64,000 bases of DNA, from the IMG/VR virus record IMGVR_UViG_3300048837_000398, positions 1-64,000 of that record, one strand, 5' to 3'. Origin of the DNA: a virus. The position numbers were made by a program, and so were the translations under genes. Each line of letters begins with the position of its first letter. The stretch's first letter is position 1. Of the stretch, positions 3-61,972 are shown piece by piece. Below the pieces are notes generated by a model that was not told the DNA's origin, did no database searches, and saw only the letters and a list, made by a program, of their open reading frames with translations.

Positions 3-3000
3 AGCGAAGAAGAATATATGTCGCTAAAGGAGATCATTAGCTCAGAGTCTACTCTAGTTAGTAATCTCGTTCAGATGCTCAACAACAACTCTTCGCTTAT
101 CGAGAACTCGAGCTACCGGCGTGGTGATGGTAAGAGCGCATATCCTTTTAAAGATAACTCGTGACAATCACTTCTTCTTACGCAGCTTAATCCGCCTGAA
201 GCTCAACGCAAAGATGCGCGTGCTACCCTCAATCGTGATAACAAGCTAACGACTAACGACATCTTCTTGCGAGATAATCTCTTCGCAGTACCAGGTCCGT
301 CCAAGCTTCTTGGTTTCATAGACCACGACTCGCTCAAGACTAAGGGTAAAGATGAGTATGCTCGCTTCTTACGTAGAGAAGGTACGCGCGACTACTATCG
401 TCGTAACATAGTGAACGGCTTCTTAGATGCGTTTCGTTCTTCGTTAGGTGGAAGCTACATACAGTTCCTTCCTAATCCTTCTAATCGCCGCACTATCTCT
501 GGAGTAAGAGTTACTCCGCTAAATGCTAAGCAAGCTGAAGCTGCTCTTTTAAAGACAATCGAGGCTCAACGCAAGCGTCCTGATCCAGCTTTCAATCCGA
601 AGCTCGCTAACGACAAGCACTACACGAAGAAAGATAAGAACGGTGTCGCTAACTGGCAGAAGTTTAAGATCCCTGGTCTTTCAGGCATCCTCATTACTGA
701 CAAGCGTACGAACGCTCAACTTCTTGAGATCGCTCTCAAGCACCATGCTACACGTTCTAAGGAACTGCACGAACGCTTCTATTCAGAGATCAAGCAAGCT
801 AATACCCCTGTCGATATTTCGAAGCTAGAGTATATGGCTGAGCATCTAAAGTTCTTACCGTCTAGCTACGTAAAAGATAAAGTCTACACCAAAGCTTTGC
901 GTAAAGCTAAGAAGGCTAAGCAAGACACTACTAAAATGGTAGCAGACCGTGCTAAAGTAATCGAAGAGATGACTGCGAAAATGCTCGATCTTTTCTATAT
1001 CAACCACACGGTCAATCAGTATGCGCTCTCGCAATGGCTCTATGGTGACGAAGCTTTCTTCGCTTCTAAAGAAGTAGAGACTAAGCGTATTCAAGTTGCT
1101 ACTGCTACTTCTAAGAAAGTTCTTGTCGACGAAAAGTATGGACTTCCACTCACCTCAAGAGTTGGTGTGTTTGCTGACATCAAGACAACTGTACCAGAGT
1201 TAGAGGGCATGCGCAAAGACTCGTTAGGAGATAGCTTTGACTCTACTGATGCTGAAGGGTTTATGCTACCTTCTTTCTATTCGAAACTAGCATCTGCAGC
1301 AGGTATCGAGTCTGACACAGACATCGTGCTTAAGCCAGTTTACTACGCGATCAAAGACGGCATTCCGACCGCCATCAAGTATTCTGCCAAAGTTCTTACT
1401 GACGAGCTCACTTCTAAGTTTCCACACCTTAGGGCACTTCGTGATTTTATGGAGTCTAACAAACTCGATCAGATGGTAGCTGAGTCTGCTGTTAAAGTAG
1501 GTACTCCTAAGACGCTACTAAAGACTGACGAGTTCGGGCTCATAGATCCTATGTCCTTTGACGATAAAGCGATCATCACGATCGACAACGAGTTCTTAGG
1601 CCTACAGCTTAATCCTGCACACGCAGTAGAAACGTCAGTTGCTAACCCTTCGCAAGGAACGTCAGTAATTAACACTAATGGGCAGAACGAAGCTGAGACT
1701 GCTCAACTCTACGATCTTAATTCGCTAGTTATTGATCTGGGTCTTCGCGATCTAACACGTCGACTCAAGCTCACTCGCAAAGGAACGCTCACTCAAAAGT
1801 CCCTGTTCGAGATTCGGAGAGCACTTCTAAAGACAGCTGAATCTATACCTGGTAACCGAGATCTCTATTATCTTCTTTCGCATAAGGATGAGAATGGTCG
1901 CTACGACGTACCGATGTCTCTGCCACTCATCGCTAACAAAGTAATTTCTAATCTTTCGTCTATATTCTCGAAAGACTCTGTAGCATTCCGTTTCGCAGGA
2001 TCTAAGCTCGTACTTCAATCAGACGTAGGTACGCGTAAGTTCTACGACGACGAAGGTAATTTAGTAGACTCTTCGCTCAAATTCAAGGATGAAGAAGGCT
2101 ACACCGAAGTGTTTTTACCGCACCACTATCGCGAGTTCTTTTCGACTGGTGACAAGATCCAGATGTCTGGTAAAGGCAAGGACGCTATGGTCGGCTTCCG
2201 TATCCCTTCATCTAACTATCACTCGCTGCTCGCTATCAAGGTAAAAGGATTCTATCCGGCTCCTACTGCTTCAGAAGGTAACATCGTGATAGCGCCTTCT
2301 CCTATCGTCTACTATCATGGTTCTGACTACGATGTAGACACACTCTTCATCATTCGTAAAGAACTACAGAAAGAAGCTACTGACTTACAACTACTCGTAG
2401 CAGAAGTTAGGGATACCACCAACCTCGATCTTTCGATAGCAGCTAACGAGGTAATCGGCTTCAAAGGCGAAGAGTCTCACCGTGTAGAAGGTAAATATCT
2501 ACACTACTTCTTAGAAGACATCATCATATTGTACGATCAGAAGATAGAGACTCTTCGAGCTAACGTCCTCAATCAGACTCTTACGATACAAGAACGTAAG
2601 CAGCTCAATAACCAATTAGACGTCCTAACCGATTCAGCCAAGAAGCTAACAGACATCGCGCGTACGTCAGCTAAGAATCACATCGTCTCGCTATTCTCTG
2701 AGAACTTACGCGATCCTAAGAATCGTACTGACCTTCTTACTCCTATCTCGTTCGAGCAAGTAGCGTCACTTAAGTCTCGAAAAGTTACTGAAGAGAATGT
2801 CGAAAGCTTACGTGAAGCTGACGACTCGTTAATGGAAATGTGGGCTAAGCTCGAAGCTGAGAAGCGAGGAGTCACGATCTCTGAGTTCCCTACTCAAGAA
2901 GAAGTTGACGAGCTTATTTATCCTGAAGGTGAGTTGACAGACTTCCTTACGCAAGGAGAGATCAAATCTAACACCGACTCTGGTGGCATGGGTATCGGTA

Positions 3001-6000
3001 TCGCAGCTAACACCCTAGGCGCTGTAGCTCGAGCATTCTCTCAAGAGCGCATTACTTCGATTAAAGACACCACTACGGGCGAGATCTTCCTCGAGAAATC
3101 GCTAGAAGCACAGCAACTGTTGAAGGCTAACAAGGCTACAGATTTCGAGAATCTTATAAAGGGATCTGATCGTTATGTAGTCGAGACACGTGCTACTCCT
3201 AAGTTGCGTCCACCTACTAAAGGTAGAAGCGAACTAGATCTGCGTGTAGACGGGCACAAGCTCTCAGAGTTCAGGCGTAAAGCACTAAACTTAGAGACTG
3301 GCGAAGTTCTGACACACAACGGCTACGACGTCAACATCTTCGAGACTTTCGATACAATCGAGAACTTAGCGATAGACAACGTCAAAGAACAGAAGCTCTT
3401 TATACTTGGCTTCAATAATAACAATGCTAACGCGTTTCTCTCGGCTCTTGCTTTTGGCATACCTCTGAAGAATGTTTCGAAAATATTTAGAACACCATTC
3501 ATCGAAGGACTGTTCTCAGCTGGACGTATTTACGACGACAAGTACACCTATCATTTCGACGATATGATTAACGAGTTGGCAACATCTTTCTTAGAAGATC
3601 GTGGAGCTTTCGAAAAAGGATTGACTCAAGCTACTAACAAGCCTTCGCTATTCAAGTCGATAGAGAATGCGTACAACGCCGGGAACGATCTCAAAGCTAC
3701 TCTTAAAGTAGAGCTGTCTAAAGTACACACGTACTCAGCAATACTCGATGGTGTTTACACAGGCAAGATCACTGGTGTAGCTAAAATGGTTTCAGACTAC
3801 GCAGCTCTAAACAACGTCTTCAAGCTTTCGCAGATCGGGCAACAGCTCTTTAAGCACGCGCAGATCCTGTCGATGTTGAAGCGCTATCCTAACTCTAAGC
3901 ACAAGATAGATGGTGTGCTTAATGCTGTAGACAGCCTCGTAGAGTTCGAAGCTACAGAGCAAATGCACAAGCAGATCTTCAAAGACTACGGCTACAAACT
4001 TCGCGAGCACTTAGCTGCAACCTCTCAAGAGTATATTGAACTAGCTAAGCGCGATCAAGCTGCTGCAGATAGCTACTTAGATAAACTGATGAGAGAGCTT
4101 AAGAACTCAGATCTGTATGCTGCTATGCCTACAAAGCTAGCGAATGCTTCGTTCACTAACGCTCTTCTACGTCGCTCTATCGCTAAGCGCATGGTGCCTA
4201 CTTCGTCTAACATATTCGAAGACAACAATATCTTACGCATGCCGCACGTATTCTCTGCGTATCGTGGACTTGTTCAGCTTAAAGCACTTATCGAGAACAC
4301 GTTTGCTATGCACTATCCAGAAGTACGTGAGTTCGCTGAGCACACCTTAGATCGTTCGCGTCTGTACGTACTTCCGTTCAAGCGCTACCAAACTATCGAG
4401 CGTATCCAAGAGAACTATCTGAACTTCATTTCGTCAGGCATGACTCTCTACTTCGGAGATAACAGCTTCGAGCTCTCGATAAAAGACACTACGATTAACG
4501 AAGAGCAATGGACACAAAGCTTTGTCTCACGCTTTCAAACGATGGCTGCAGAACATCCTAACAACTTAGTGCTCAACTCGACCGAGATTATTACGAGCGA
4601 TGTTGGTGTCAAGAGTTTAGCAATCACTGCTGACAAAGTAAAGAACGAAGAGTCTGTCGAACGTTTACGTGATTCCTTCAGAGAGCTCATGCGAATCGAT
4701 CATGCCTTCGCTCTAGACTGGTTTAAATATGCGCTCATAACTAAGGGCTTGTTCTTCGATCGTACGAGCTTCTCGCTACTCTTTCCTGAATCGTGGGCAG
4801 TTGCATATGGCAAGTCTCTTAATGATCGCTTAGAAACCTTGGTCCCTCGCGACAATCCAGCGTACACACGCCATACGGCTAAGATTTTAGCAGACGAGTT
4901 TCTGTTCCAATATCTGCGGCGTAAACAAGAATCACTTCGTTATGTGAGTGGTATTTCACCTAAAGAAATGAGCGAGTACGTCGACGCTAAAGGCTACACA
5001 AAAAAAGTACTTAGCGGAACAGATGTTTTCGAGGATCGCACTATACATTTTGATCTCAAGTTTTTGACTACAGAAGGCACTCCTGATTTCATCCGTACCT
5101 TTGACAAAGCAGTTTATGCTAAGCACGCAACTTGGGATGGAGCCTCCTACTATCGAAAGATCGCGATGGGCTCTAAAGACAACCTGCTGAAGTTCAACAT
5201 CAACTCTCTACAGACTGGAGCACTTAGCCTCGCCAAGCTACTCGATCCTTCGATCAAAGTCATAGACTCTGCATCGATAGTAGATGGTAAGCTGCGCACA
5301 GGAGAAGCACTAGAGATAGGCACAGAATTCTACATTCACAACATGAACGAAGCTTCTCCTCGCTCTCTAACGAAAGCTAAGGTGACTGCTAGACTAGGAG
5401 ACTTCCACGGACTCTACCAATTTAAATGGAAGAACGAAGGCTCTTATTCGATCACTAATTCAGAACTAATCGAAGCTTCAGCAGCTGATCTTGCTCCTCT
5501 GCAAAGTGCTGATAACGCTAGAGCTGCGATAGTTGGAAACGCTTCAGCTAGCTTACGGGCTGCTAAGAATAGTGCTCGTGAAAATGCGATCGCTCTAGTT
5601 AGACTAGACCAGATGACTGATCCAGCAAAATCCTTAGGGCTCGACATAAAAGATGTGTCTGAACTCTCTGATGAGCTGCTCACTACGTATGTCTTAGATA
5701 TCGAAAAGAAGATAGCGTCTATTCCTAACAACACTCTAGTCTATATTAGCCAAGACTTGCTTACCCCGCTAATGGAGAACAGTCCGTCTATCGCTCAGAG
5801 ATTTGCTCAAGCCATCTTCAACAAGACTAAGTTCGCTCTTCCTATTCTTAACGAGGACGTGCAAGACACTGTTTCAGCTACAGCTAAGCTCATGATTAAG
5901 CGAGCGACTTTCTTAAAAGCTGTCCTGTCTAATCCAGTGCACATGGTGAAAACTGGTGACGCCTGGACGATCGATATCAAAGCTGCTAAGGCTGACGGTT

Positions 6001-6209
6001 CGATAATGCTAGGTACCATCAGAGACGGAGATTCGATTGGCATAGGTAAGGACGGTCTCAACAAAGAGCGTTACGCATATGTCTTTAGCGTAGAAAAAGG
6101 CATCGCGACAGTTATACCGTATTCAGAAGAAGTGTTCGAAAGCATGACCGAGACTAACTACTCGTCGACTGACTTCATGGCACTAGCGACTAAAAAAACA
6201 AAATGTTAA
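3..6209 (+). CDS. Virion-packaged multisubunit-type RNA polymerase (crAss-like), 5' truncated by window edge
   Basis: More than 2000 aa. Has the RIPSSNYHS motif and a catalytic DxDxD loop (HGSDYDVD). The frame stays open to the window start if the TGA at 162-164 is read through. Confidence 0.88.
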
Positions 6210-11073: not shown

Positions 11074-11149
11074 AACGAGACGTAGGAATCGAACCTACCT
11101 TATCGAGATTTCACCTCGGCGCTATCACCAGATTTAGCAGCTATCTCAA
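11074..11149 (-). tRNA. Degenerate tRNA-Phe(GAA)-like sequence
   Basis: Minus strand: D arm GCTA/TAGC, anticodon arm CGAG-GTGAAAT-CTCG, T arm GTAGG-TTCGATT-CCTAC. The acceptor stem is weak and the element overlaps the end of a CDS. Confidence 0.45.
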
Positions 11150-12968: not shown

Positions 12969-13982
12969 TTATCTAAATATTGAAAGTGGGATCTCGCCGT
13001 TAGCTTCGTAGACTTCTTTTGGGAGCTCCCAATAGTCTTTGCTGGAATGCCACCTGTAAGCCCTCAGGAGATCGTTAATACCGTGGTAGTACTTACTCCC
13101 CAAGCTACAGCCTTCAACGCCGCAGAAGCGCTCTGAGGGGCTCGTACGGTAAATTATAGCTGGGTTTACAGCGTCACTCTTCGATTCGACCACAATAAAG
13201 ATGAAATCGAGTACTTCGTAGCCTTCATCCAAGTACTTTCTGATCGGCGACTCTTTCGAATAGAGCGCTATTTCGTAGAACGCACACTGCCGATAGTAGC
13301 CGAAGTGAAGATACGAAGACGAGAATTCCCAGACACTTTTACCCGTAGTCTTTAGGTCGAAGGGCTGGATTGTCTTGGCAGCATGATCGATAAGGATGCC
13401 GTCTAAGAGCCCTTTACATTCAGTAACTTCTCCGTCTAACTCGTAGTCGAAATAGATAGCTACTTGGTGCATCAACTCCTTGTTAGGATCTTTGTTGACG
13501 AAGTAGGGTAGCGTATATTCGTTAGCGCCAATCGTTTCGACAGCCTTCTTGACTTGGAAGTACTCGTCTTTAGATAGCGCAATTTTATTTTCGTCGAGCT
13601 GTGTAAGTCACAAATAGTATTCGACGTGCTTCTCGTTAGTGAGAAACTGATCTACTACCCATGCTAAGCTCTTTTTGTAGCCAGCCTTATCGTAGGCCTC
13701 TTGATAGTCTTCGAGAGGAGATTCTCCAGTCAGTCCTTTAGGTAAGTTCTTGACGAACTTAAACATCAAGCCATAAGGCTTAGAGACGTCTCCTACTACG
13801 AAGTCATCCTTTCAACGCTCAGGGGAAGTTAGCAGACAGTCTACTGCTGAGCCGATACGCAAAGCAGTGTCGTCTTCGTCTTCAAATAGTTCTGGATTAT
13901 TACGTCTGAGTCAAGCCTGCTTAGGGTTGAGCATCGACGATAGTAGAGAGTTGGAGATTCGATTTACTTTGAAGTAGTGCAT
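12969..13982 (-). CDS. PD-(D/E)XK exonuclease (RecE/exonuclease VIII-like), 3 in-frame TGA
   Basis: Motifs ISNSLL, GSAVD, CKGLLD...DLKTT and YYRQCAFY. TGAs at 13911, 13812 and 13608 are in frame. Confidence 0.8.
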
Positions 13983-13993
13983 TTTATAGGTTT

Positions 13994-14188
13994 TTATTTT
14001 AGTCCGAATTCAAACTCCCAAGACTTAGTCGACTCATCGTAGCGAAGCGTTTGCTCGATATAACATTCTTGTTTGTGAGTTTCATAGTATTTGTTCAGGA
14101 GTTCTATCAGATCAGCTCTGAATTTTTTGGCGTCTTCTTCAGTAGGAACGTTTACGGTAACTTCGAATGAAAGGAGTATGCTACCCAT
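13994..14188 (-). CDS. Hypothetical protein
   Basis: ORF tiles between its neighbours. Confidence 0.55.
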   Translation of the reverse strand: MGSILLSFEVTVNVPTEEDAKKFRADLIELLNKYYETHKQECYIEQTLRYDESTKSWEFEFGLK

Positions 14189-14564
14189 GTTGTATAATTT
14201 CTATTGCTTGATCCAGTTCCTTCACGCTTTGCGGCAAGAAGAGCTGGATTTTTTTGTTTTTAAATTTGTGCTTTAGCAGTTTCCACTTGAGATTGAAGTC
14301 AGGTGTACGCATTCCTTTAGTCTCGATTATCCAGCCTTTCCCAACAAAGTCAGGAGTATAAGTGATAGGTCGCACTTTAGTGGAGATCTCTTTGAAAACC
14401 TTTCGATTACGTTCTCAAGAGACTGCTTTAGTTGTGAAACCCTCGACAAGGAGTATTGCGTAAGGTTCGTACTCGAATTCTATGTTAGCGTCTACTAGCT
14501 TTTGGTAGCATAGTGCCTCGAACTTAGAGCGAAATTTCGTAGTCTTCGTGTTCTTGTATTTCAT
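14181..14564 (-). CDS. T7 endonuclease I-like / Holliday junction resolvase (in-frame TGA at 14415-14417)
   Basis: FRSKFE...FEYEP...YTPDF...IIETKG motif set becomes contiguous only with TGA read-through. Confidence 0.8.
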
Positions 14565-45570: not shown

Positions 45571-45577
45571 GGTGTGT

Positions 45578-46024: not shown

Positions 46025-46348
46025 ATGTGTGTATTTAATAAGATGTTAAAAAGTTTGTGAAAACTCTAAACACCCCTACCCCCATTTGTTCCGCAAAAGC
46101 GATAGCGGGGTATGCAGTTGGGGGCCATAATATTTATCGCACACACAATTTAGGCCAGCATATTTATCGCGCGCATAAACTATCAACAATTAACACATAA
46201 AAAATATTATTTGCTAGTTACGAAAAACGCAGAAAAAGGCACCCTACCCCCTCTTTTTGCGCAGAAAAGGGCACCCCGGCTCTCTTTTTTAAGTACCTAC
46301 TCCTCTAATCGAATACACACTAAAAATATTTTAAAAATAGTTGCTCTA

Positions 46349-46863: not shown

Positions 46864-47268
46864 ATGTCTCTAACGTTTCCTACACTTTCTCCTAAAGAGT
46901 TTATGACGCTGTTCCTCAGGACTCTCTCGTCTCTACGTAAAGAGAAGCTGTCTCCGCAAGAGTTAGACATGCTCGTGGCTTTCTCGCTTCTTCCTCACAA
47001 GTTTACGTCTTTTCCGTTCTCTACTGTCGGCAAGAAGAAAGTAGCTAAGCAGCTAAAGATTTCTAATCAGGCTCTTCATGCGCGCATCTATTCTCTTCTC
47101 AAGAAAGGGTATCTACGTAAGGATGAAGATGGTGTAGTGCTGCTACCAGCGTTCATACATCAGACCCTTACCTCTTTCTTGAAAGGGTCGTACGCACTAA
47201 ACATTTCGTTTACTCTTGATAACTCAAAAGACTACTCGTCTCTTACACGAGACTTCCCAGCTGACTAG
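46864..47268 (+). CDS. Winged-HTH DNA-binding protein
   Basis: KKVAKQLKISNQALHARIYSLLKKGYL helix-turn-helix with wing. Confidence 0.7.
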   Translation: MSLTFPTLSPKEFMTLFLRTLSSLRKEKLSPQELDMLVAFSLLPHKFTSFPFSTVGKKKVAKQLKISNQALHARIYSLLKKGYLRKDEDGVVLLPAFIHQTLTSFLKGSYALNISFTLDNSKDYSSLTRDFPAD

Positions 47269-47497
47269 CATTCCTTACCATATTATCGAACACGTGATTC
47301 ACCACCAGTTCTTTTGGATTGCTACTCAGCTATCTCTTCCCACCTCTCCGCACTTCAAAGTCTACCGGCTAGGCTCGTTTCATCTGCCTAAGGCCGCGCT
47401 CATCCACAGACTTCGAAAGTCGCTCCTCATACTTAAACGCAAAGCTTCCACTCCTTCTTACGAGGCTTTTATCAGAAAGTTCATCTCTACAACTTGA
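47216..47497 (+). CDS. HU/IHF-like DNA-binding protein (terminal TGA may be read through)
   Basis: Helix-helix region followed by FKVYRLGSFHL. Confidence 0.5.
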   Translation: MITQKTTRLLHETSQLTSIPYHIIEHVIHHQFFWIATQLSLPTSPHFKVYRLGSFHLPKAALIHRLRKSLLILKRKASTPSYEAFIRKFISTT

Positions 47498-47507
47498 CCA
47501 CTTCGAC

Positions 47508-47744
47508 ATGAAGCAAAAAACTTTTCAGACACAGCCCAAATCCGCTATTGATCCACTGCAACTCCAGCTGCTACAGCACAATGTGCACCTCGATACGCTA
47601 AAGGTACTTACAAGCGTACTACAAGCATCTACGCCTAATACCCTTCTTCACGACACTACTTCTACTCTCATTCTTCAATTCTTAGAACCGTTCAAACATG
47701 GAAATAGCGAACCTATCACTGATGGGGAATCGAGTGCTGATTAA
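47508..47744 (+). CDS. Hypothetical protein
   Basis: ORF in operon context. Confidence 0.5.
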   Translation: MKQKTFQTQPKSAIDPLQLQLLQHNVHLDTLKVLTSVLQASTPNTLLHDTTSTLILQFLEPFKHGNSEPITDGESSAD

Positions 47745-48075
47745 GCTCGACGAACACCCAGATCACACCGTCACTTCTACAGGTATAATTGTGCCTGACT
47801 TCACTCCGTCCTACACTGACTCAGGTCGACCAAAAGACGAGCTCTCTAAGCTTAAGCACCTTTTTAAGGGTACTGTCCTCGCTCTCTCGCCCATCGCCGC
47901 CCAGAAGCTCGCTGAAGAGTCTACGCCTCTGTCACCTTCCGACAGAGTCTACATTTCACAACAAGCTTTCTCAGACTCGTACCAGTTTTTTCTGAATCGT
48001 GATGCTATCACTCTTCCTTTCGAAGGTCTCATCGCAATACCTCACTCTCTAATCGAAGCTAAAATCAATGGCTAA
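47698..48075 (+). CDS. groES: GroES-like co-chaperonin
   Basis: LMGNRVLIK...TSTGIIVPD...KGTVLALS; longer than bacterial GroES. Confidence 0.75.
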   Translation: MEIANLSLMGNRVLIKLDEHPDHTVTSTGIIVPDFTPSYTDSGRPKDELSKLKHLFKGTVLALSPIAAQKLAEESTPLSPSDRVYISQQAFSDSYQFFLNRDAITLPFEGLIAIPHSLIEAKING

Positions 48076-48409
48076 AACTATCACTTCACTCACTAAGGAA
48101 CTCTCGACAGCTCAAAAAGAGCTTTCCACCCTTTCTCTTCAGATCTCTACTCTCTCTACTGAGAAAGAGCAACTCACCGCCGTACTCCAAGAACGTCAGC
48201 GTTTGCTCGAGTACGTAGCATCTATTCTTCTCGAGATTCAGACTAACCTCGAAAAGTATCCAGCTCTCTTAAACATTCCGTCTAAAATCAAGATCTTCTG
48301 GGTAATCTCTAATCTTGGCTCAATCATTTCTTTCCTTACTTTCCTCATTTCCAAGATCAAAGAGTTCGCAACAAACATCAAGTTTAATAAGGATGCTCCT
48401 GCTCAATAA
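48068..48409 (+). CDS. Protein with coiled coil and C-terminal TM helix
   Basis: Heptad repeat followed by a hydrophobic helix. Confidence 0.6.
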   Translation: MAKTITSLTKELSTAQKELSTLSLQISTLSTEKEQLTAVLQERQRLLEYVASILLEIQTNLEKYPALLNIPSKIKIFWVISNLGSIISFLTFLISKIKEFATNIKFNKDAPAQ

Positions 48410-48887
48410 CTTTGATCCGTCACAAGACTTTTGGCTCTCTAATCCGCAAGCTCAAATCATCTTCGCTGACTACGTCAACACTCCTTCGTCACACATGTGG
48501 GCGGCTCTGCTCTATGCTCATCCAGAGTCAAAGCTGTTTAACGAGTCGCCCACGTCTCGACGTCTACTCATCATCGAAGACTATTTAAAAGACCCCTCTT
48601 TCGATTGAGACTCTCTTCTTCCACTCATCGAAGCTATCAAAAGGCTAGCTCTTTCTAAGCCTCAACAGCTTCTTCTCAACTGGGAGAAGCGTATGTACGA
48701 ACGAGAAGCTTTCATGGATTCGACCTCCTACTCTCAAGAGACGTATCAGATGAAAGAGCAGATGGCTAAGGAGACTCCTAAGATGTGGCAATCTTTTTTC
48801 CAGATACAAGATCTCCTCTCGAAAGAGAAGGCGTCCGTCACTGAAGGAGATATCGAAGAATCGCTCTCTGAAAAAGGCTTAATCTAA
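48393..48887 (+). CDS. Hypothetical protein of the structural module (in-frame TGA at 48606-48608)
   Basis: MLLLNNFD...DPSFD*DSLL is in frame with ORF 48693-48887. Confidence 0.7.
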
Positions 48888-48892
48888 CGCAC

Positions 48893-49039
48893 ATGAAACG
48901 TCACTATTCTTCGAAACTAGACAAAGATGAAGCTCTAGCTTCGTACTCTCCACCACCCTTACCAAAGTCTCCGACTCCTCCAGCAAAAGATTCTTCTCCT
49001 ACACTTTGGCAAAAGCTAAAAAGGGTCGTATCTTTATAA
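48893..49039 (+). CDS. Small Pro-rich hypothetical protein
   Basis: 48-aa ORF MKRHYSS...WQKLKRVVSL. Confidence 0.4.
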   Translation: MKRHYSSKLDKDEALASYSPPPLPKSPTPPAKDSSPTLWQKLKRVVSL

Positions 49040-49047
49040 CATCAACC

Positions 49048-49279
49048 GGGGATGAACCAGGCTCGACTAGTTAGCTAGTATCTTTTAATCGACAATTACC
49101 ACTTCACTCTTGGCCTCGACATAGATCAAGATCTGCTTCTCTCTGTAGCGGATGAAACAACAGAGACAGTACCGTCCACATTACAAGAAGTTTTAGTTTA
49201 ATCACCACTCACACGCTTACCCACACGCTAGTAAACTAGCCTACTAACTAGGACGCGGGGGCAGTGCCCGCCATCTCCA
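49048..49279 (+). ncRNA. ssrA: tmRNA, compact (about 232 nt)
   Basis: 5' GGGGATGAACCAGGCTCGAC; 3' GGACGCGG-GGGCAGTG-CCCGC-CATCTCC-A; G3.U70 Ala determinant; P2 CTAGTTAG/CTAACTAG; resume context TAATC/GAC. Confidence 0.85.
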
Positions 49280-49814
49280 AGCGCCTATGCGAATTAAAGA
49301 AAAAGTTTGTTCTAATTGTCTTCAAACTTTCAAACCAACGTCGCGGCATCGACTCTGTCCTAAATGCAGAAACTCTCTCTGCAGGAAGGAATGCCAAAAT
49401 TGCGGACGACCTATTCAGTGTAAGTCAAAATATTGCGTACTATGTTCTAACAAATTAGAGCCGCGCAATACTTCACCACTAAAGATCAGAGCCGCAAACC
49501 ACGCTTTGAATAAAGCCCGTTCTCGTCACCACGTAGTAGACATAACTGCTGACTATCTAATAGAATTATTAGAACACCAACAGTCTAGGTGTGCTTATAC
49601 AGGTTTACCGATGTACTTACCTACATCTACTAAGTCTTGTGAAGATAAACGGTTATGCGCATCTTTGGACCGAATCGACTCCACCCTACCATACACAAAA
49701 GGTAACGTACAATGAGTAGTCGTACCAATTAATCTAATGAAAAATACTATGTCTGACCAAGACACTCGTGAATTTATTTCGTGGCTCAAGAATTCTTAGT
49801 GCCCGCCATCTCCA
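49263..49814 (+). mobile_element. Free-standing homing endonuclease cassette flanked by a 17-bp direct repeat of the tmRNA 3' end
   Basis: AGTGCCCGCCATCTCCA occurs at 49263-49279 and 49798-49814; only the distal copy is followed by CCA. Confidence 0.8.
49287..49799 (+). CDS. Cys-rich HNH-like homing endonuclease (in-frame TGA at 49713-49715)
   Basis: N-terminal CxxC pairs; QQSRCAYTG; SLDRIDS...YTKGNVQ*VVVPINLMK. Confidence 0.85.
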
Positions 49815-50115: not shown

Positions 50116-50198
50116 GGAGAGATGGCAGAGCGGTTTAATGCACTAGTCTTGAAAACTAGCGGTCTCACGATCCCCGAGTTCGAATCTCGGTCTCTCCG
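50116..50198 (+). tRNA. tRNA-Ser(TGA)
   Basis: GGAGAGA/TCTCTCC acceptor, CTAGT-CTTGAAA-ACTAG anticodon arm, variable arm, GTTCGAATC, discriminator G73. Confidence 0.93.
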
Positions 50199-50257
50199 CA
50201 TCACCTGTGTTGGTGCTAAACAGTGTGGTTTAAGTTGTAAAAACTTACCACACACCT

Positions 50258-50343
50258 ACTCTAGTGGCGGAATCGGTAGACGCTATACTAAGCAGCTGAA
50301 GCTAGGCAATTCAGCAGTACAGGTTCGAACCCTGTCTAGAGCA
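50258..50343 (+). tRNA. Leu-like tRNA body with aberrant elongated anticodon arm
   Basis: TGGCGGAATCGGTAGACGC D arm and ACAGG-TTCGAAC-CCTGT T arm. Central arm GCTGAA-GCTAGGCAA-TTCAGC. Confidence 0.55.
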
Positions 50344-51845: not shown

Positions 51846-51867
51846 ATTTTCACAAGCTTAATTACTC

Positions 51868-51963
51868 GGGGGTGCTTCACTGTTGCAGAACAGGACTAGT
51901 CTTCAAAACTAGACGACTGGGGTCCAAACTCAGTTTATTCGGGTGCAAGTCCTGACACCCTCG
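51868..51963 (+). tRNA. Opal (UGA)-decoding tRNA, anticodon TCA, Ser/Sec-like body
   Basis: Acceptor GGGGGTG/CACCCTC plus G73; D stem CTGTT-GCAG-AACAG; CTAGT-CTTCAAA-ACTAG (TCA at 51903-51905); long variable arm; T arm TCGGG-TGCAAGT-CCTGA. Confidence 0.85.
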
Positions 51964-52226: not shown

Positions 52227-52415
52227 ATGTCACACATGCTAATGGAATCTTCAGCCTCTCCTTGTCCTTGTGAAGAACGCGCTTCAACCGAACTTACTCG
52301 CTACACGATTCGTTTCTCTACTCAAGAGCCCGTTAACTTAACGACAATCCAACATCTAGTAGACACAGCTTTTCCTAACGCTCGCATAGATGCTCTCGAA
52401 ATCAACCGATGGTAA
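52227..52415 (+). CDS. Hypothetical protein
   Basis: ORF in operon context. Confidence 0.5.
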   Translation: MSHMLMESSASPCPCEERASTELTRYTIRFSTQEPVNLTTIQHLVDTAFPNARIDALEINRW

Positions 52416-52660
52416 CAGCCAACCTATCGTTTCTAGACAACGAAGTACTGCTCTATCACTCGACACTCCAACTAGAGAGTGTGAAAGATGTCGACAAAGC
52501 GCTAGACGCAGAGCTCTCAAACTTAAAGATGGCGATATTCGCTCACATCTACAAAAACCGTCCTTCAGAGTGGCACGAACCAACGCCGCTTCCTAACACA
52601 AACTTACTCAATGACAAAGAAAGTTATTACAGGCCCATCACTCCAGACGTCACTACTTAA
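52409..52660 (+). CDS. Hypothetical protein
   Basis: ORF in operon context. Confidence 0.5.
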
Positions 52661-55202
52661 TGGCGTAAATACTATTGCTAATGCAGTAGGATCAACTCTT
52701 GGCCCACTAGGCCGTAACGTAGTTATCGAAACTCCGTATGGCGCAACAACTGTTACTAAAGATGGTGTTACAGTTGCTCAACAAATTACTCTCGAAGATC
52801 CTCTCGAGAACTTAGCTGTTCAAATTATTAAGCAGGCATCAGAGCGCACAGCTTCTATAGCTGGCGACGGACCACAGCCCCTTTATTCGAAAGTTCTCAC
52901 ACCAACTGGGTGGACAACTCTAGGTGAACTAAAAGTTGGAGATACCATTTGTGGTACAAATGGTACTACACAAAAGGTCGTAGGCTTTTACCCTAAAGGA
53001 CCCTTACCTTTATATAAGGTTATTTTTTCGGACGGAAGAACAGTTGAATGTTCGGAAGACCACTTGTGGACCGTGACCACTAATTACGGAAAACAAAAAA
53101 CTCTGCCTCTAAGTGAGCTTATAAATCAAGGTTTGTCGTTAATTAACGACGACGGCCACAATAAGTACAAGTTTTTTGTTCAAACTACTGAAGTAGAATT
53201 TGATGAAAAACCCCTCCCCTTAGATCCTTACTTTCTAGGAGTATTGCTTGGAGATGGTTCCCTAAGTGGAAGTGGTGCAATTGAGCTCTCGTTAGGCCTC
53301 AAGAAGGCACACATACTACAAAAGCTTCTTTTGCCAGAAGGCATGAGTTTTACGATCGCTTTAGATGAATCTAAAAATTATATTAGAGTTAGATTTCAAG
53401 GTGCTGATAAAAATGGGAAAAATCTAAAAGACATTCTTTTAGATTTAAATTTGCTCGGAACACATAGCGCTACAAAATTTATTCCGGACCTATACCTCTA
53501 TTCGAGCTTAAAATCTCGCGAAGCCCTTTTACAGGGTCTCGTAGACACTGATGGCCATGTTAATCTTCGTGGCAAATTCGAGTTTAGTACTATAAGCGAC
53601 CAACTATCTGCCAACTTTCAAGATTTGGTACGCTCACTGGGCATTCAGACGCACTACACAAAGTTAGACCGAACATATTCTGGCGGATATTCTGTAAACC
53701 CAGTCCATCGGATAGTAGAATTAAAAGGGTACAAACACGGCATCAAAATAGTAGATGTTCAACCTCAAAACAGATTTGAGGAGATGGTCTGTATTAAAGT
53801 TTCAAACGATGACCATTTGTACATCACAGATGAATATGTCGTCACACATAATACAACTACTGCAACAGTACTCGCGCAAAAGCTTTATTCCGAAGCACTT
53901 AAACTAGTTAACTCGGGTGTCGCCCCTATCCACATCAAGAACGATTACGAAGCCTACTTAAAAGCTATCGCCCCTCTTATCGACGATAATACGCTCCAGA
54001 TTACGACGCCTCAAGACACGTACCAGATCGCACTTATTTCTGCGAATAACGATCCGACTATTGCATCTCTTATTTCGACAGCTATCGAATACGTAGGCAA
54101 GGATGGCTCGATTACACTCGAAGAGTCTAAGACTGGCGAGTCGTATGTAGAGCTAGTAGACGGTACTTCTTTCGAGCGCCCTTACGCTTCTCCGTACTTC
54201 GTCACTAATCCGCCTAAAGGGACAGCTGAACTCACCAATCCGCTCATCTTTATTACGGATAAGAAACTTCGCTACAATCAAGAGCTTCTTCCCGTACTCA
54301 ACTTAGCAGCCGATAACTCACGTCCACTAGTTATTATTGCAGACGATATCGAAGGTCAAGCTCTTCAGACGCTCGTCATCAACAAGCTTCGCGGTACTAT
54401 CGAGGTGCTAGCTATCAGAGCTCCTTCGTACGGTGAGAACCGTCTCGAAGTACTTAAAGACCTCGCAGCCCTCACTTCAGCGAACCTTATTACAGAGCTC
54501 TCTGGAACACGTATCGAAGATGTTAAGCTCACTGATTTAGGTGAAGCGGCTAAAGTGATTTCTTCGCGTCACCAAACTATCATTGTTGATGGTGTTCAAG
54601 ATCCCACCCAAATCGAAGCTCGTGCGAGTACAATCACACAGCTTCTCGCTCAACATCAGCCAGACTCATATTTCTATAAGCAGCTCTCTACTCGACTAGC
54701 TAAGCTCACTGCTAAGGTTGCAGTGCTCAATGTAGGAGCACCTACAGAAACCGAGCTTAAAGAGCGCAAAGCCCGTGTTGACGACGCACTTCGAGCTACT
54801 ACAGCAGCTATTAAAACTGGTTTCGTAGTTGGTGGCGGTACGCTTCTCGCTAAGCTCTCGACTACCCTCCCTAACGATCTTTCGTCTAAAGCCTTCGCAC
54901 TAGCTCTTCAAGAACCTCTTCGTCGAATAGCTGAAAATGCTGGACAATCTCCGTCTCTCGTCCTTTCAAAAGTACTTGAGAACCCTTCGATTTCATTCGG
55001 TTATAACGCTTTAACTGACTCCTATACAGATCTTATCGAAGACAAGGTTATCGATCCTGCACTCGTAGTGAAGCAAGCGCTACTCTCCGCAGTTTCAGCA
55101 GCAAACATGCTCATCCTATCTTCGACTGCAGTCTACAATGTAGATCGCACTCCTCCTTATTCTCCAGGCTCTCTAAATGATTTTGAATCGCACGAATCCT
55201 AA
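52611..55202 (+). CDS. groEL: GroEL chaperonin precursor containing an intein (536 aa after splicing)
   Basis: [37 protein letters not shown] and VIDPALV motifs. Confidence 0.95.
52872..53852 (+). mobile_element. Class 3 intein with LAGLIDADG endonuclease in GroEL (327 aa)
   Basis: Starts [17 protein letters not shown] triad: EDHLW, MVCIKV, VVTHN/T. Endonuclease motifs GVLLGDG and GLVDTDG. Confidence 0.9.
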
Positions 55203-58200
55203 CGACTTCATAGTCGAGATTCCGCAGCATCATCCGCTTTCTTCAGCATATTTATCGTTCTGACGCGAGCAAAAAAGACGTTCAATAGAAGGTTATTGGG
55301 TAGGTGGCATTTGAATGCCTCCTGCCCTTTACTATTATGCGAACTTCGGAACAATCAAGAAGAACCGCTCTAAGTATTCAGCTTCCTCCAAGATCTATGC
55401 GCGGCCTGACTTACGAGACATCGAATGGGATCTATTCTATCTCTATACAGAAGCGCGAGGATTCTCAGGATTTTCTCTCGACCCCGTCTACTCCTCTAAC
55501 AAAGCTCTACTTGACGCAGAAGTAACTGACGATATTCTTCGACTTCACCTGCCATCTACACTCAAGGCTGACGGATCTCGCAAAACATTCGTTCCAGCTC
55601 GCGAGTATATGCGCGCTCTACACCCTACCCAACTAGGCGCACCTCTTTTCGAAAATGAAAAGCAGAACCTTCTTCTTCTCGGTACTCGAGATCTCGGCAA
55701 GTCGTATGCTGTAGGTGTAGGCATGGTTGGCCACATGTTCCTTTTCGATGGCGCAACTTCTTATTCAGAGTCTCGCGAAGAGCTCTCTCCAGCTGAAGTT
55801 CTTGTAGGAGCATCTGTTTCAGACAAATCTCGAGATCTACTTAAAAAAACAAAAGACTCGTTCGATTTCTTACCGGGCAAGCAAATCATCGCCTCACGCA
55901 CTTACCCTTCTCCTTTCTCTAAACAGTACACAGGCTCGTGAGCAGTTAATGCTGATATCAAGGCCGAATATAAAAAGAAGTCTGATGGGCGATGGGAGAC
56001 AGTGGGCTCCCGCTCTACGATTAAGCATCGCTCTTTCAACGAAAACCCGTTTGCTGCACAAGGTACTCGCCCTGACTTACTTGTCATCGAGGAAGCTGGT
56101 CTAGCTTCAGAGCTCAAAGACATCTTCGTGCACACTGTCGACACACTGCGTCGAGGTCTAACTAAGACTGGGACATTGCTTTGCTTGGGTTGTGTCGTAG
56201 CTGGCACTAAAGTTTGAACATCTAAAGGTAAACTTCTAAACGTCGAAGATCTTACCGTAGAAGATGGAATCTTAGGTTACTCTGGATCAGCAATTGTACC
56301 TCTACCAATCACTAACATTAACCCAATCGCAGTAAAACAGTGTGTCAGAATTACGACCGAAGGTAACAACGTTATCGAAGCCTCTATAGACCACCCATTT
56401 TTAGCCTCTTCTCGTAAAGAACGGCTTTCTAACACAACGTACAATTATAATTTCAAGCAAGCCGCTACACTAAACGTAGGTGATTACTTAGCGCTAGCTA
56501 ACGAAATCCCGTTTTTTGGAGAAGTCGAGGAAAAAGACGCTTACTTAATAGGGCTGATGCTCGGTGACGGCTACTTTAAAGGCTCGTCAGTTTCGATCGA
56601 TAACGACGAAGTCTACAACTTTATTTCGACTAACTACGAAACGTCTACACACAAAAGGTACGAAACTAAAAAAGGGACGCTGTACTACGAGCTCTACATA
56701 AAAGGGATTAGTCAAAAGCTAAAAACTCTAGGGCTAACGGATCTTACTAAAGAACAAAAAGATTTTCCGCTTACAGCACAAGAATTTTCGAAAGAGTCTT
56801 TAGCACTTCTGCTAGCAGGTTGCTTCGACTCAGATGGAAATGTCAATAGGTCTAAAAAGACAACACGTGTTGTTCTAACTAATATTTCGTTAAAACTACT
56901 TCAATCGGTTAAATGGGCCCTTTTAAAATTTGGCATCCATTCTTCGATCTACAAAGAGAAACGAAACACGAAGCCCCCTAAAGGCTACGAAAATCAGCTA
57001 CCGCATATTTACAGACTCTACATTTCTAGAGACGCAGACGTCGCCACGTTTAAGCAGTACATTCCAATTAAGCATTCTAAAAAAGTCGAAACTCTAGGCC
57101 AATTTACTCCAGGTAATCGTCAAGTTGGAAAACACTTAGGAGTCTTCACACTTACAAACCGCCATGAAGACGAAACATTCTTAGCCGATAACTCGTCGAT
57201 TTCTAACTTTAGATTCGTACGCGTGACTTCTGTCGAGGCAATTGGTGAAAAAGAAATCTACAACCTAACTGCAGGAGAATATCATAACTATCTAGCCAAT
57301 GGCTTCATCACCCATAACACAGGTGGAGACATGCAGAAGGGCACGCTCGCAGCTTCCGAAATGTTTTACGAGCCCGAGAAATACGACTTCCTTTCTTTCG
57401 AAGATACTTACGAGTCTCGAGGCAAGATAGCATATTTTGTGCCCGCCTACTATTCTCTCGATAAGTTTCGAGACGATTGGGGTTACGTAGACATTCAAAA
57501 AGCTACAGAAAGCCTACTGCTTAAACGCAAGAAACTAGCTGGTGATTCTGGAGGTTCGTTCGCTCTCGACCAAGAGATGCAGTATCGTCCTCTCGTACCT
57601 TCCGAGATGTTTCTTTCGAAAGCAGCTAACATATTCCCGTTCGCAGAAATACGCCGCCGTCTCTCAGAACTACAGACTACGAAAGAATACGAAATGTACG
57701 AGCACAAGGTCAACCTATATTTTGACCCTTCTTCACAGTATAATGGTGTGTCGTACGCTATCGACCCCTCGCTAAATCCGATCACACGTTTCCCGTGAGA
57801 CTCTGACGACAGAGAAGGTGCAGTAGTTATCTACGACTTCCCGCACTTAGAAGATGGTAAAGTGCCTCCTGGCGCTTATATCATAGGATGCGACCCTTTT
57901 AAAGATGATTCACCTGACGGGCCCTCACTCGCCGCTGTCTACGTCATGAAGACGTCTAAGTACTTTGCGACGATAGGCCACGACGAAATAGTAGCATCTT
58001 ACATAGGTCGTCCATACATGGGTAAGAATGCTGTCAACGAGATCCTGCATAAACTAGCGCTCTTCTACAACGCTAAAATTTACTTCGAAAATTCTGTCGG
58101 CAACGTAAAAGACTACTTCGAAAAAGTTCGACGCCTCGACCTACTCGCTACGCAGCCAACTACAATTTTCAACAAAAAAGCTTCGTTCCTTTCGAATCAA

Positions 58201-58563
58201 TCGTTCATCTATGGCTACCCCATGCCAAACCAAAAAGTTAAGTGGGAAGCTCTGCAGTATCTACGAGCTTGGCTACTTACAGAACGTTCAGACTCTAAAA
58301 GAAACTTAGACCTCATCAAAGATCCAGCCCTTCTTCAAGAACTTATTTCGTTTAACCTCGACGGAAACTTCGACAGAGTCATGGGCCTCACTGGCTGCAT
58401 AATAGGGCTCGAAGAAATATATAACCTACAAAGACGCACCGAGCATTATCAAAAAGAATCTTCGGAGCTAGACAAAGAATTTACTAGACTTATTGTCAAC
58501 AACAAAAAACTTTTCCATGAAAATTTTTCCAAAACAAAGGCTAGCGTACTCTGAGAAAATTAA
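55177..58563 (+). CDS. terL: Terminase large subunit precursor (intein; 6 in-frame TGA)
   Basis: YLSF*REQKRRSIEGY...I*MPPALYYYANF; GTRDLGKS; LVIEEAG; G/TGGDM; GCDPF; GNFDRV. TGAs at 55261, 55312, 55939, 56215, 57796 and 58552. Confidence 0.92.
56191..57318 (+). mobile_element. Class 1 intein with LAGLIDADG endonuclease in TerL (376 aa)
   Basis: Starts CVVAGTKV*T; SIDHPF; GLMLGDG and GCFDSDG; ends YNL...ITHN/T. Confidence 0.92.
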
Positions 58564-60910
58564 GTCGGACTTCAAATGGGCGAAAGAAACTATCGACCAC
58601 TTGCTTCTTAATTTTACTCTCGAGGCTACCGTAGTCAATCAATATCACACTGACTACTTCAGAAAGCTTTCTAATTACCAGCTCTATAACAATCAGCTAA
58701 ACCAAAAAGATTTCGAAAAAGAGTGTAACCCACTCGGCATCGATGTCGGGCAATTTGCTGACGAGATTCAACCGTACAACAAAACGTACAACAAGATTCA
58801 AGTCTTGCTAGGTGAGGAGCTGCGTCGTCCGTTCAACTTCCGAACTATACTTGTCAATTCAGAAGGAGTTCGTTCGAAGATCGCACACCGTAACGCACTA
58901 ATTCGTCAATACGTAGAAACGCAAGTAAAGAAAACTCTAGCTCAATTCTCTGAGCTCTATTCTGAAGAACTGCTAGAAGAAGCTTCGACTCCGACGCTCG
59001 ACCCTTCGCAGATAGATGTCTACATGAAGACTACGTATCTCGACGCACGCGAACGACTTTCTTCGCAGATGCTGCGCTACCTACTCCGTTCACTCGACAT
59101 CAAAGACAAACAGTCTGATGGCTTTAAACACGCATGCATTGCTGGCGAAGAACTTGTCTACGTGTCTTCATTTCGTAACGAACCAGTACTCGAGATCGTT
59201 AATCCGCTCGGATTCTTTTCGCACAAATCACCCGAGACTAAGTGAGTTCAAGACTCTCTTTTCGCAGGCTATCGTACGTATCTCACTCCTTCAGAAGTCC
59301 TAGATCGTTATGGCGACTACTTGACAGAAGAACAACGTAAGACCATCGACTCTACTTCGATGGCACCATCAGGCATCAAGTCTGACACTATCTCTGGAGC
59401 ACATCGTTACGGTCACGAAAACATGGATCGCAACGAATCGACAACTCCTTTCTTCGAAGGTTCGTATTCACCGTCATCCGTAGAAGACTGGCTAGTCGAG
59501 CACGTAGAATGGCGCTCACAACGTAAGGTAGGCTTTCTCATCACCACTCCACTAGACCAAGAACCTTCTGAGCAGATCGTATCTGAAGACTTCGAAGTTC
59601 CGTCTATCGCCTCGAAGACAACTATCTTAAAAGAGTACAATCGAAAGCAAACGTCGTACAATTGGACAGACGAGCTAGGCACTTCTTACTCACTTCACTG
59701 GTCGTGGATTCCTGAAGTTTGGCAAGGTACTCGTATCGGTCGCACTATCTACTGTATGATAGGCCCTAAAGAAGAGCAGTTCCGTTCGCAAGATAATCCG
59801 TACGAAGTAAAGCTCGGTTATCATGGCCTGGTCTATAATGCGATGAACGCTTCGTCTATCTCGATAATGGACCGCATGAAGCCTTTTGCTTATCTCTACT
59901 TTATCGTGATGCACAAGCTCAAAAAGCTCATTGCTCAAGACCAAGGCAAAGTGTTCCCTATCGACGTTTCGATGATAGATCCTAAGATAGGACTCGAGAA
60001 GACACTCTACTACCTAAAAGAACTCAACTTAGACTTCTATAACCCGCTTCAAAATGCTGAAGTTCCTTCAGTAGCTCAGCGTGGTAAAGTTACTTCTGCG
60101 ATCGACATGTCGAACATGCAGCACATACTTAACTACGTATCCTTACTCGGCGCACTAGATCAGCAAATTTCTGAAGTGGCAGGCGTAACGCGCCAACGTG
60201 AAGGGCAGATTCTACCTACTGAAGCTGTTACTAATGCAGCAGCTAACGCACAAATGTCGTCAGTGATTACGCAGATTTATTTTCAGGCTCACGATAAACT
60301 CTGGGAAAAGATTCTCACTTCTCTTCTTCAAGTAACACGCCAAGCTTGGAAAAACAAGAAGATCGTGAAGCAATATGTTCTCGACGATCTATCAGTAGCT
60401 ACTCTCGAAATGTCTGAAGACGCGCTTCAAGATGCAGACTTAGGGGTTTTTGTTACGGACTCTGGTAAAGAAGTCGAAATGTTTGACGCGCTCAAGGGCA
60501 TGGCTGATGGATTACTCAACACAAACCGAGCTACGTTCTCAGACCTCATCAAGATGTACAAATCTAACTCTGCAGAAGAACTTCAAAAGCTTATCGAAGA
60601 TTCTGAAGACAAGATGCGCGAGCAAGAATCTCAAAGTCAACAGCAACAGATCGAAGCTGCTCAACAGGCTCAACAAGCTGAACAACAGTTCGAACTCGAG
60701 AAGCAAGCGCGTGAGCACGAAAATCAAATTACTCTTGCTGAAATTAATTCGTTCCGTTTCCAAGATAACCAAGACATAAATAGCAATCAAGTACCTGACC
60801 AACTTGAAGTAGCTAAGCTTAAATACGACCAAGAATTCAGAAACCGTAAGCTCGACTTAGAAGAACGCTCTGTTAAAGTGAAAGAAAAACAAGCTTCTAA
60901 ACCTAAATAA
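58517..60910 (+). CDS. Portal protein (in-frame TGA at 59243-59245)
   Basis: Follows TerL. FPKQRL start, WIPEVWQGTRIG and AGVTRQREGQI as in crAss-like portals; about 797 aa after read-through. Confidence 0.88.
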
Positions 60911-60979: not shown

Positions 60980-61972
60980 ATGGACAAGCAAATAACACTC
61001 GACGACATCTTCGACGATAACTATACTTCACCAGAACCAATCGAAGAACCAATCGAAGAACCCATCGAAGAACCCATCGAGCCTACTGACATCGACGACA
61101 CCTCAGAAGTACGCAAAGCATACTTCGATTTCTTAGTCGAAAATGAAGTTCTCGATCTCCCTTCAGAATTCGAATACGACGGTTCTTCCGAGAAACTTCA
61201 AGAAGCGCTAGAGCTAGCCAAAACAAACCAACAGAAAAAGATCGTCGAAAGCTTTTGGAACACTCTTCCCGAGGATCTACGCGAAGCATACGAATTTGTT
61301 TCGGCTAACAACGCAACTCTCGAAGATTACTACGAATCTCGCCTACAAAATCCAGCTACTCTAGACCTTTCGCGTCCAGAGAATCAGCGCAAAATTGTCG
61401 AACGATTCTTAAAAGAAACTACGCGCTTTTCACCCGAAAAGATTAAACGCACCATTACGTCGTACGAAGAAGACGGCATCTTAGATGCTGAAGCGTCGGA
61501 TGCAGCTGCTGAACTCGAAGTGCTTTTCGAACAGCAAAATGAACAGCGTCAACAACAGCTCGCAAAACAAGCTGCAGATGCTGAAAAGCAACGCAAAGAA
61601 TATACTGAAGAGCTAGTGAAAGCTATCAATTCTTCGAGCTTTATTCATCCGACTCGTCGCGAAAAAGTGCGTTCCTTTTTCTTTTCACCGATCAAACAAA
61701 ACAACGAGCAGACAACAGCTTTCAACCTTACAGTGCAGAACATTCTTGCTAACCCAGAACATCAAGCTCAACTCGCAGATTTACTTTTAGATTATTCTGC
61801 GTCGCAAGGATTTTCACTCGAGCGTTTCGAGAAACGTGTTAAAGCTCGCGCAACATCTACGTTTAAAGACGATCTCGATCGAGCTCTCGATCCTAAACGT
61901 AAAGCAGGGACTCCTGCAAAAGTTAATAAAACTGACACTACAGAATTTTTAGAAAACTGACTTAAAAACTAA
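60980..61972 (+). CDS. Acidic scaffold-like protein between portal and capsid
   Basis: Acidic and coiled-coil with PIEE repeats. Reading through TGA at 61958 ends the gene at a TAA overlapping the capsid ATG. Confidence 0.7.
61034..61084 (+). repeat. 12-bp tandem repeats encoding EPIE
   Basis: GAACC(A/C)ATCGAA repeated about four times. Confidence 0.8.

Follow-up and report, generated by a model that had tools for sequence, protein, structure and literature searches.

Recoding of TGA from stop to tryptophan (Trp) is known in crAss-like phages, as are partial or dual coding, suppressor transfer RNAs (tRNAs) and the combination of recoding with inteins and introns (PMC7886860; 10.1101/2021.08.26.457843). 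Borges et al. proposed an order of translation in which genes in the standard code come first, followed by recoded genes once a suppressor has appeared (10.1101/2021.08.26.457843). In the crAss-like work cited here, replication genes usually keep the standard code and are 'variably' recoded, while in Lak phages they are recoded as a rule; lysis genes are among the most recoded in published recoded phages, and Mgcod placed the code boundary of gut crAss phages at the strand switch (10.1101/2022.06.29.495998). A suppressor tRNA with the anticodon UCA is found in only ~35% of the described TGA-to-Trp crAss-like phages, and Yutin et al. and Borges et al. both reported many recoded phages without a detectable suppressor, for which divergent tRNAs were suspected (PMC7886860; 10.1101/2021.08.26.457843). 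Here we analysed in-frame TGA codons in a 64,000-nucleotide stretch of viral DNA (the window), which is the first 64 kb of the 103,011-bp contig IMGVR_UViG_3300048837_000398, obtained from activated sludge.

The phage is a new environmental member of the known TGA-to-Trp recoding of crAss-like phages. Like the described members, it has in-frame TGAs facing Trp in the genes for the large terminase (TerL; five here) and the portal protein (one here), a part of its genome is compatible with the standard code, and inteins and introns occur alongside the recoding. A further likeness is that a UCA tRNA can be detected in only some of the members, with charging by a host synthetase presumed. Unlike the gut phages, this phage comes from activated sludge and represents a very divergent lineage. 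Three features are unusual: recoding is heaviest in the replication genes, the two codes meet within a single strand arm, and the candidate suppressor departs from the canonical form. In addition, and in contrast to published recoded phages, putative lysis-type glucosaminidases lie in a standard-code block and the capsid gene is devoid of TGA.

Portal, TerL and capsid matched crAss-type PHROG families, and a search with the portal protein returned 134 phage records, mostly crAss-like, at an identity of only 26–31%. These matches, together with the low portal identity (<30% to named crAss phages), place the phage on a deep branch of the crAss-like phages. Its length of ~103 kb, circular permutation, two opposed arms and giant open reading frames (ORFs) are crAss-like traits as well. 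A terminal repeat of 127 bp indicates that the genome is complete and circularly permuted. A ~95–96% identical strain was present among contigs of an activated-sludge/wastewater study. The three DNA runs of this study contained contigs of a relative only, and no RNA run was listed.

An earlier note, made from the letters of the window alone, had listed 24 internal in-frame TGAs. All 24 coordinates proved to be TGA on the coding strand, each within an ORF bounded only by TAA or TAG (Table 1). The codon interrupting these ORFs was always TGA and never TAA or TAG, and the TGA-bearing frames were free of frameshifts, as the note had stated. It had also described TGA use as sparse, with TGG as the main Trp codon, and this held at the scale of the genome: TGA occurred in frame 51 times in 28,036 codons and 372 and 656 times in the other two frames (7–13 times rarer in frame), and 308 TGG codons were found against 35 internal TGAs (~10% TGA). 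The sense TGAs lie in replication, packaging and virion genes and in homing-endonuclease and intein ORFs. We left out of the count the TGAs at 12052, 14010, 17638, 17852 and 32840 (and at 65716 and 79485, beyond the window), which lie within 33 codons of an ORF start and probably precede the true start. The TGAs at 21990, 58552 and 61958 are 2–3 codons from a TAA, and act as stops or harmless read-throughs.

Reading through the TGAs had been claimed to restore RNA polymerase, exonuclease, resolvase, primase, DnaB, helicase, PolA, TerL and portal genes. For all but the first of these, profile matches do cross the TGAs, as is also the case for the HNH endonuclease. The RNA polymerase identity could not be confirmed, since the giant ORFs had no PHROG or PDB sequence match and held one D-x-D-x-D motif only (DYDVD near 2325). 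TerL contains an intein, and it therefore needs protein splicing besides read-through. When the replication block was called under genetic code 4 instead of code 11, the share covered by ORFs of at least 100 amino acids (aa) rose from 0.72 to 0.89.

We then tabulated the residues opposite the TGAs in alignments of 120 exonuclease homologs, 150 polymerase representatives, homologs of the HNH endonuclease and of the intein, and 75 IMG/VR loci together with three complete or near-complete relatives (G001, G005 and G003). At 22 of the 24 sites, TGA faced Trp, Tyr/Phe or a relative's own in-frame TGA; the columns at 11433 and 28919 were the only uninformative ones. All four motifs quoted in the earlier note (LVKQ*, IN*NS, GNVQ*V and YLSF*) lay opposite Trp. 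Gly appeared at most once per column, and no column was enriched in Gly, Cys or Ser. Since the columns hold Trp, another aromatic residue or TGA and have no excess of Gly, Cys or Ser, the homologs indicate that TGA is read as Trp, in agreement with the note.

Phages of Absconditabacteria and Gracilibacteria use code 25, in which TGA encodes Gly. They resemble this phage in having in-frame TGA in phage hallmark genes, but differ in that the columns here hold W, Y or F. The lack of enrichment in Gly or Cys excludes code 25 and selenocysteine (Sec), and the lack of enrichment in Ser argues against that residue. Recoding to Sec is also contradicted by the spread of ~35 sites over unrelated proteins and by a tRNA-Sec score below threshold (Sec insertion sequence, SECIS, elements were not searched).

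The sense TGAs are unevenly distributed over the genome. The note had proposed that replication genes are gated as well as late genes, and as far as the placement of TGA goes this was upheld, the replication block being the most recoded, with a sense TGA:TGG ratio of 15:58 against 16:172 in the virion arm (Fisher p = 0.01). By comparison, a block of 27 ORFs from 46 to 30 kb had no sense TGA (0:62; p = 5e-5 against the replication block), and TGA is the stop codon in 10 of its 27 genes (at 29992, 30615, 35303, 37491, 39638, 41053, 42540, 43363, 43602 and 44078), two of them in ATGA stop/start overlaps (35303–35306 and 37491–37494). Only 3 of 63 genes in the other two blocks end in TGA (1/28 in the replication block and 2/35 in the virion arm; p = 2e-4). 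The genome is thus not uniformly in code 4, consistent with the suggestion that the code switch is incomplete. The boundary of this standard-code block near 30 kb falls inside the minus-strand arm, unlike the boundary of gut crAss phages, and is not at the strand switch. The block encodes two AAA ATPases and two glucosaminidase-domain proteins. The same block pattern was seen in both relatives checked (G001 and G005). A tendency for backup stops to follow terminal TGAs closely was considered and dropped, as the classification was circular and in 3 of 13 cases the next TAA or TAG was 28–71 codons away.

Comparison with the three relatives allowed us to ask how old the recoding is. All three are collinear with this genome, at protein identities of 25–80%. 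Among the relatives' in-frame stops inside alignments, 59 of 62 were TGA, and this phage had TGA, W or Y opposite most of them. TGA makes up 9%, 16% and 10% of their Trp codons, against ~10% here, and TGA and TGG interchange at conserved Trp columns. TGA/TGG sites were shared with the three relatives at odds ratios (ORs) of 19, 7.7 and 10.5, whereas control A/G-ending synonymous pairs (Lys, Glu, Gln, Leu and Arg) at conserved columns were nearly randomised (OR 0–1.7). This signal mostly reflects which genes carry TGA. Fifteen orthologs carry at least one TGA both here and in G001, 5 and 5 in one phage only and 38 in neither (OR 23, p = 1e-6); the association was also seen with G005 (OR 45, p about 1e-6) and with G003 (p = 0.002). 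After shuffling within genes, an excess of shared sites survived for G001, the closest relative, only (8 observed, 3.2 expected, p = 0.0008). The early-stage recoding suggested in the note is therefore unsupported: a similar TGA share, the same block pattern (in G001 and G005), the same TGA-bearing orthologs and partly the same columns, at 25–80% protein identity, indicate that the low-frequency use of TGA is old and stable.

ARAGORN detected no suppressor tRNA in the genome, its single tRNA being a tRNA-Ser. A permissive Rfam scan brought up a tRNA-Sec-like candidate with the anticodon UCA (the UCA element), with a score of 26.8 bits for Rfam tRNA-Sec (E = 0.0018 in a 251-nt search). Its predicted fold (z = -2.8) combines an acceptor stem of 7–8 bp and a T stem of 5 bp with a long variable arm and a long D stem that is closed by a 4-nt loop. 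No other hairpin in the genome encloses CUUCAAA in a 5-bp stem, and the element and the tRNA-Ser have identical anticodon stems. The element lies in a tRNA island between homologs of 48315–48887 and 52409–52660, and ordinary-size UCA tRNAs occupy the same interval in G001 and G005. These tRNA-Trp-like genes have in common with it the island, the flanking genes, the loop CUUCAAA and the 11-mer GTCTTCAAAAC. They measure 74–75 nt, their variable loop is short, and they have A1:U72 and G73, two marks that match bacterial tRNA-Trp identity. The UCA element measures 96–97 nt, its variable arm and its D stem (with a 4-nt loop) are both long and its T loop is odd, and beyond the anticodon loop it has no sequence similarity to them.

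The UCA element resembles tRNA-Sec, allo-tRNAs and selC* tRNAs in its long acceptor stem (8 bp possible), its long D stem with a tetraloop and its long variable arm; some of these tRNAs have a UCA anticodon, and they are found in phages and can suppress (PMC5389517). The resemblance is incomplete, as allo-tRNAs have 8/4 or 9/3 branches and bacterial tRNA-Sec 8/5, and these tRNAs insert Ser, Ala, Cys or Sec (PMC5389517), while the UCA element is predicted to have 7/5 or 8/5 and the sites call for Trp. A search of metagenome contigs for its T-arm/acceptor pattern gave 13 matches, all in unrelated GC-rich DNA. In a low-depth contig of sludge run X2, the T stem of the element is retained on its 5' strand but the loop differs, which is a weak hint only. 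On balance, we consider it reasonably likely that the element functions as a tRNA, and it would then be an example of the divergent suppressors suspected by Yutin et al. and Borges et al. The TGA-recoded relative G003 had no detectable UCA tRNA.

Other tRNA-like elements were also noted. One at 50258–50343 (+) scored 32 bits with the Rfam tRNA model. Its T arm is good and its D arm resembles that of tRNA-Leu, but the place of the anticodon and variable arms is taken by ~35 nt without a clear anticodon, and the element may have decayed or may be a tRNA with an intron. In G003 (locus L091), a tRNA-like gene at 78424–78503 (-) scored 34.5 bits, with a loop read by eye as CUUCUAA and a very short D region. 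A partial match (28.6 bits, model positions 10–63) with a good T arm lies at 11082–11138 (-), at the 3' end of the replication arm. A promoter and terminator scan of 45.8–52.8 kb performed no better than shuffles.

Taken together, these comparisons of sequence make it very likely that this phage belongs to a clade of crAss-like phages that decode UGA as Trp during part of infection. Decoding would be by a phage-encoded UCA tRNA, for which the only candidate here is the non-canonical long-arm element. A profile search of the genome gave no match to a release factor (RF-1) or to a class Ib synthetase (tryptophanyl-tRNA synthetase, TrpRS), and charging by the host TrpRS is proposed because the phage lacks both. 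The standard-code block would be translatable by an unmodified host, and genes with one to five UGAs would yield full-length protein only once the suppressor is abundant. The conserved choice of TGA-bearing genes fits such a timing gate, which we infer, and is just as compatible with a poorly decoded codon being avoided in genes of high expression.

Several observations weigh against this scheme. The UCA element falls below the Rfam gathering score (26.8 against 47), was missed by ARAGORN even with relaxed settings (+ strand), and has neither a canonical T loop nor the D-loop GG. Its body bears identity marks of SerRS or AlaRS and not of TrpRS (the long variable arm, with G73 in one register and G3:U70 in the other). 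No homologs from which covariation could be assessed were found, a BLAST search of five relatives returning nothing and the 17-nt anticodon arm having 0 exact matches in viral contigs. Four genes upstream of the element (47216–49799) also hold TGA. The excess of shared sites was lost for G005 and G003 in the within-gene shuffle. Finally, the two glucosaminidase genes in the standard-code block are lysis-enzyme-like, which makes it unsafe to call the block 'early', a label whose sole basis is its position beside the divergent region at 46 kb.

The strongest alternative, to which we give somewhat less than an even chance, accepts TGA as Trp and attributes the sparse pattern to codon selection with no timing gate. 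A weak suppressor would compete with release factor 2 (RF2), and UGA would be purged from highly expressed genes (capsid and major virion genes) while drifting in low-copy genes (replication enzymes, terminase and portal). In keeping with this, TGA is absent, here and in relatives, from the capsid exons and from several virion genes rich in Trp, and low-copy enzymes, TerL and portal keep it; site-level conservation is mostly gone after the within-gene shuffle for two of the relatives; and T follows 3 of 33 sense TGAs against 5 of 13 terminal TGAs, a weak hint of release-factor competition. Codon selection does not, however, explain the 16-kb block with TGA stops and ATGA overlaps, here and in G001 and G005, nor the site sharing with G001 above the within-gene expectation. 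A more elaborate form of the timing gate is rather unlikely as a whole and is offered tentatively. In it, a Sec/allo-type long-arm tRNA(UCA) would have replaced the clade's Trp-like opal suppressor, being nevertheless charged with Trp or mis-inserting Ser or Ala at Trp sites, and selection would maintain one or more UGAs in a fixed set of genes for replication and packaging, whose translation would be delayed until the tRNA is present, as a gene-by-gene gate set before DNA replication and not before lysis.

It is improbable that TGA is instead read as Ser, Ala or Cys, through a Sec/allo-tRNA-like UCA tRNA charged by SerRS, AlaRS or CysRS. The long variable arm, G73 (in the 7-bp register) or G3:U70 (in the 8-bp register) and the anticodon stem common to the element and the phage tRNA-Ser would suit such charging, and insertion of Ser, Ala or Cys by similarly shaped tRNAs was observed in E. 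coli (PMC5389517). Against this, no column has an excess of Ser, Ala or Cys, and TGA stands at near-invariant Trp columns (27377, 13812, 17215, 55939 and 19972) no more rarely than in relatives with Trp-like suppressors, on which ground we keep Trp as the decoded residue. Still less probable is a host that itself reads UGA as Trp, with no phage-driven switch. The phage genome does lack a canonical suppressor tRNA, a release factor and TrpRS, but TGA terminates ten genes of one block (with an ATGA overlap in two cases), UCA tRNAs are encoded by relatives themselves, TGA is only ~10% of Trp codons at 45% GC, and known crAss-like phage hosts use the standard code (PMC7886860). The chance that the TGAs are assembly or sequencing errors, or mark dead genes, is negligible, given that independent assemblies of other samples have TGA at the same columns, that the interruptions are always TGA and come without frameshifts, and that the genome is complete with terminal repeats.

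Table 1. Coordinates of the features discussed, with in-frame TGAs and the residues found opposite them in homologs (one-letter code; positions in the window unless stated otherwise).
Feature	Position	Strand	Basis or content	In-frame TGA and residues opposite
Plus-strand arm	46.4 kb through contig junction to 10.8 kb	+	small ORFs, tRNA island, GroEL-like gene, TerL, portal, capsid, virion genes (virion arm), giant ORFs	
Minus-strand arm	46 kb down to 11 kb	-	standard-code block, then replication block	
Standard-code block	29960–46050	-		
Replication block	30 to 11 kb	-		
5,467-codon ORF	genome 92690 across junction to window 6209	+	window part 1–6209, last ~2,069 codons	two in the ORF; 162: TGA in G001, Y in G003 and G005
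ORF, 134 aa	11100–11504	-	weak; G001 alignment only, 33% identity	11433: I
ORF, 208 aa	11464–12090	-		11869: TGA at same column in G001 and G005
Exonuclease	12969–14021	-	PHROG 412, aa 16–293	13608: W in 6/6 homologs of 62–83% identity, TGA in relatives; 13812: W 88/109, TGA in relatives; 13911: W in homologs of 62–83% identity except one Asn
Holliday-junction resolvase-like gene	14181–14564	-	PHROG 190, aa 1–106	14415: Y in G001, W/Y/I mix in other relatives
DNA primase	16615–17652	-	PHROG 12622, aa 43–294	17215: W 47/65; 17443: F/Y majority, W in G005
DnaB-like helicase	19141–20106	-	PHROG 19, aa 19–316	19972: W 18/27, TGA 5 (including G001 and G005)
ORF, 165 aa	20107–20604	-		20458: W in G001 (weak alignment, 26% identity), L, D or K in other relatives
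DNA helicase	23014–24159	-	PHROG 16, aa 12–353	23404: W 9/13, TGA 3; 23962: W in G001, TGA in G003
Family A DNA polymerase	26300–28180	-	PHROG 17, E = 6e-98, aa 30–622	27377: W 104/142
ORF, 209 aa	28532–29161	-		28919, in Lys-rich stretch: TGA within few residues in 3/3 relatives, alignment uncertain, column ambiguous
ORF, 104 aa	29229–29543	-		29418: TGA at same column in G001, G005 and G003
ORF, 190 aa	48315–48887	+		48606: F in G001, W in G005, I in G003
HNH endonuclease	49287–49799	+	PHROG 3322, aa 53–169	49713: W 8, F 7
tRNA-Ser, anticodon UGA (reads UCA, not UGA)	50116–50199	+	ARAGORN; Rfam tRNA, 59 bits	
Candidate opal-suppressor tRNA (UCA element)	51867–51963	+	permissive Rfam scan, tRNA-Sec-like; anticodon UCA, loop CUUCAAA	
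Large terminase	55177–58563	+	PHROG 6681	55261, 55312, 55939, 56215 and 57796: W, Y or own TGA in relatives across; 55939: W in all; 58552: 2 codons before TAA
LAGLIDADG intein in TerL, 376 aa	56191–57318	+	homologs with intein and LAGLIDADG Pfam domains	56215: W 4, Y 3, F 1
Portal protein	58493–60910	+	PHROG 6547, aa 6–797	59243: W in G001 and G005, Y in six other relatives
ORF	60980–61972	+		61958: 3 codons before TAA abutting next gene's ATG; stop or harmless read-through

The residues of TerL that flank the intein site are contiguous in relatives. An 8.4-kb sludge contig of a relative aligned to 55795–59397 with 160 differences and 0 gaps, which indicates that the intein is kept in that relative. 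The capsid gene apparently consists of three exons (61972–62778, 64006–64395 and 65363–65731), and is contiguous in G001. Between the first two exons are an HNH endonuclease ORF (63313–63924) and group I intron-like Rfam matches at 63257–63364 and 63731–63943 (36 bits); between the second and third are an ORF of 275 aa that contains a TGA in frame and a group I intron match of 47.9 bits at 65222–65355. The GroEL-like gene (PHROG 5725, 52611–55202) has a 981-nt in-frame insertion at 52871–53851; a related-strain contig from an activated-sludge run joins 52870 to 53852, so that an insertion-free allele exists, which fits an intein. A 1,517-codon ORF follows the 5,467-codon ORF, and neither had a PHROG or solved-structure sequence match.

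With regard to the standard-code block, the glucosaminidase-domain proteins, candidate cell-wall hydrolases, are encoded at 34364–34894 and 41056–41976 (-). GC content is 0.48–0.51 in the window from 32000 to 44000 and 0.42–0.46 elsewhere, long ORFs are present on both strands at ~36–39 kb, and only about half of the genes of the block have homologs in the closest relative. A search for related loci returned two distant loci only with the polymerase as query, and none with the DnaB-like protein.

Annotation under code 11 breaks at least 14 genes of the window, including those for the polymerase, primase, helicases, terminase and portal, and any use of the sequence depends on reading TGA correctly. 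For the field, the finding extends TGA-to-Trp recoding to a deep activated-sludge branch of the crAss-like phages and indicates that recoding can be heaviest in the replication module. Among the ~65% of code-4 phages for which no suppressor has been reported, some may have one that escapes standard tRNA finders. The choice of which genes bear UGA is conserved among relatives as distant as 25% protein identity.

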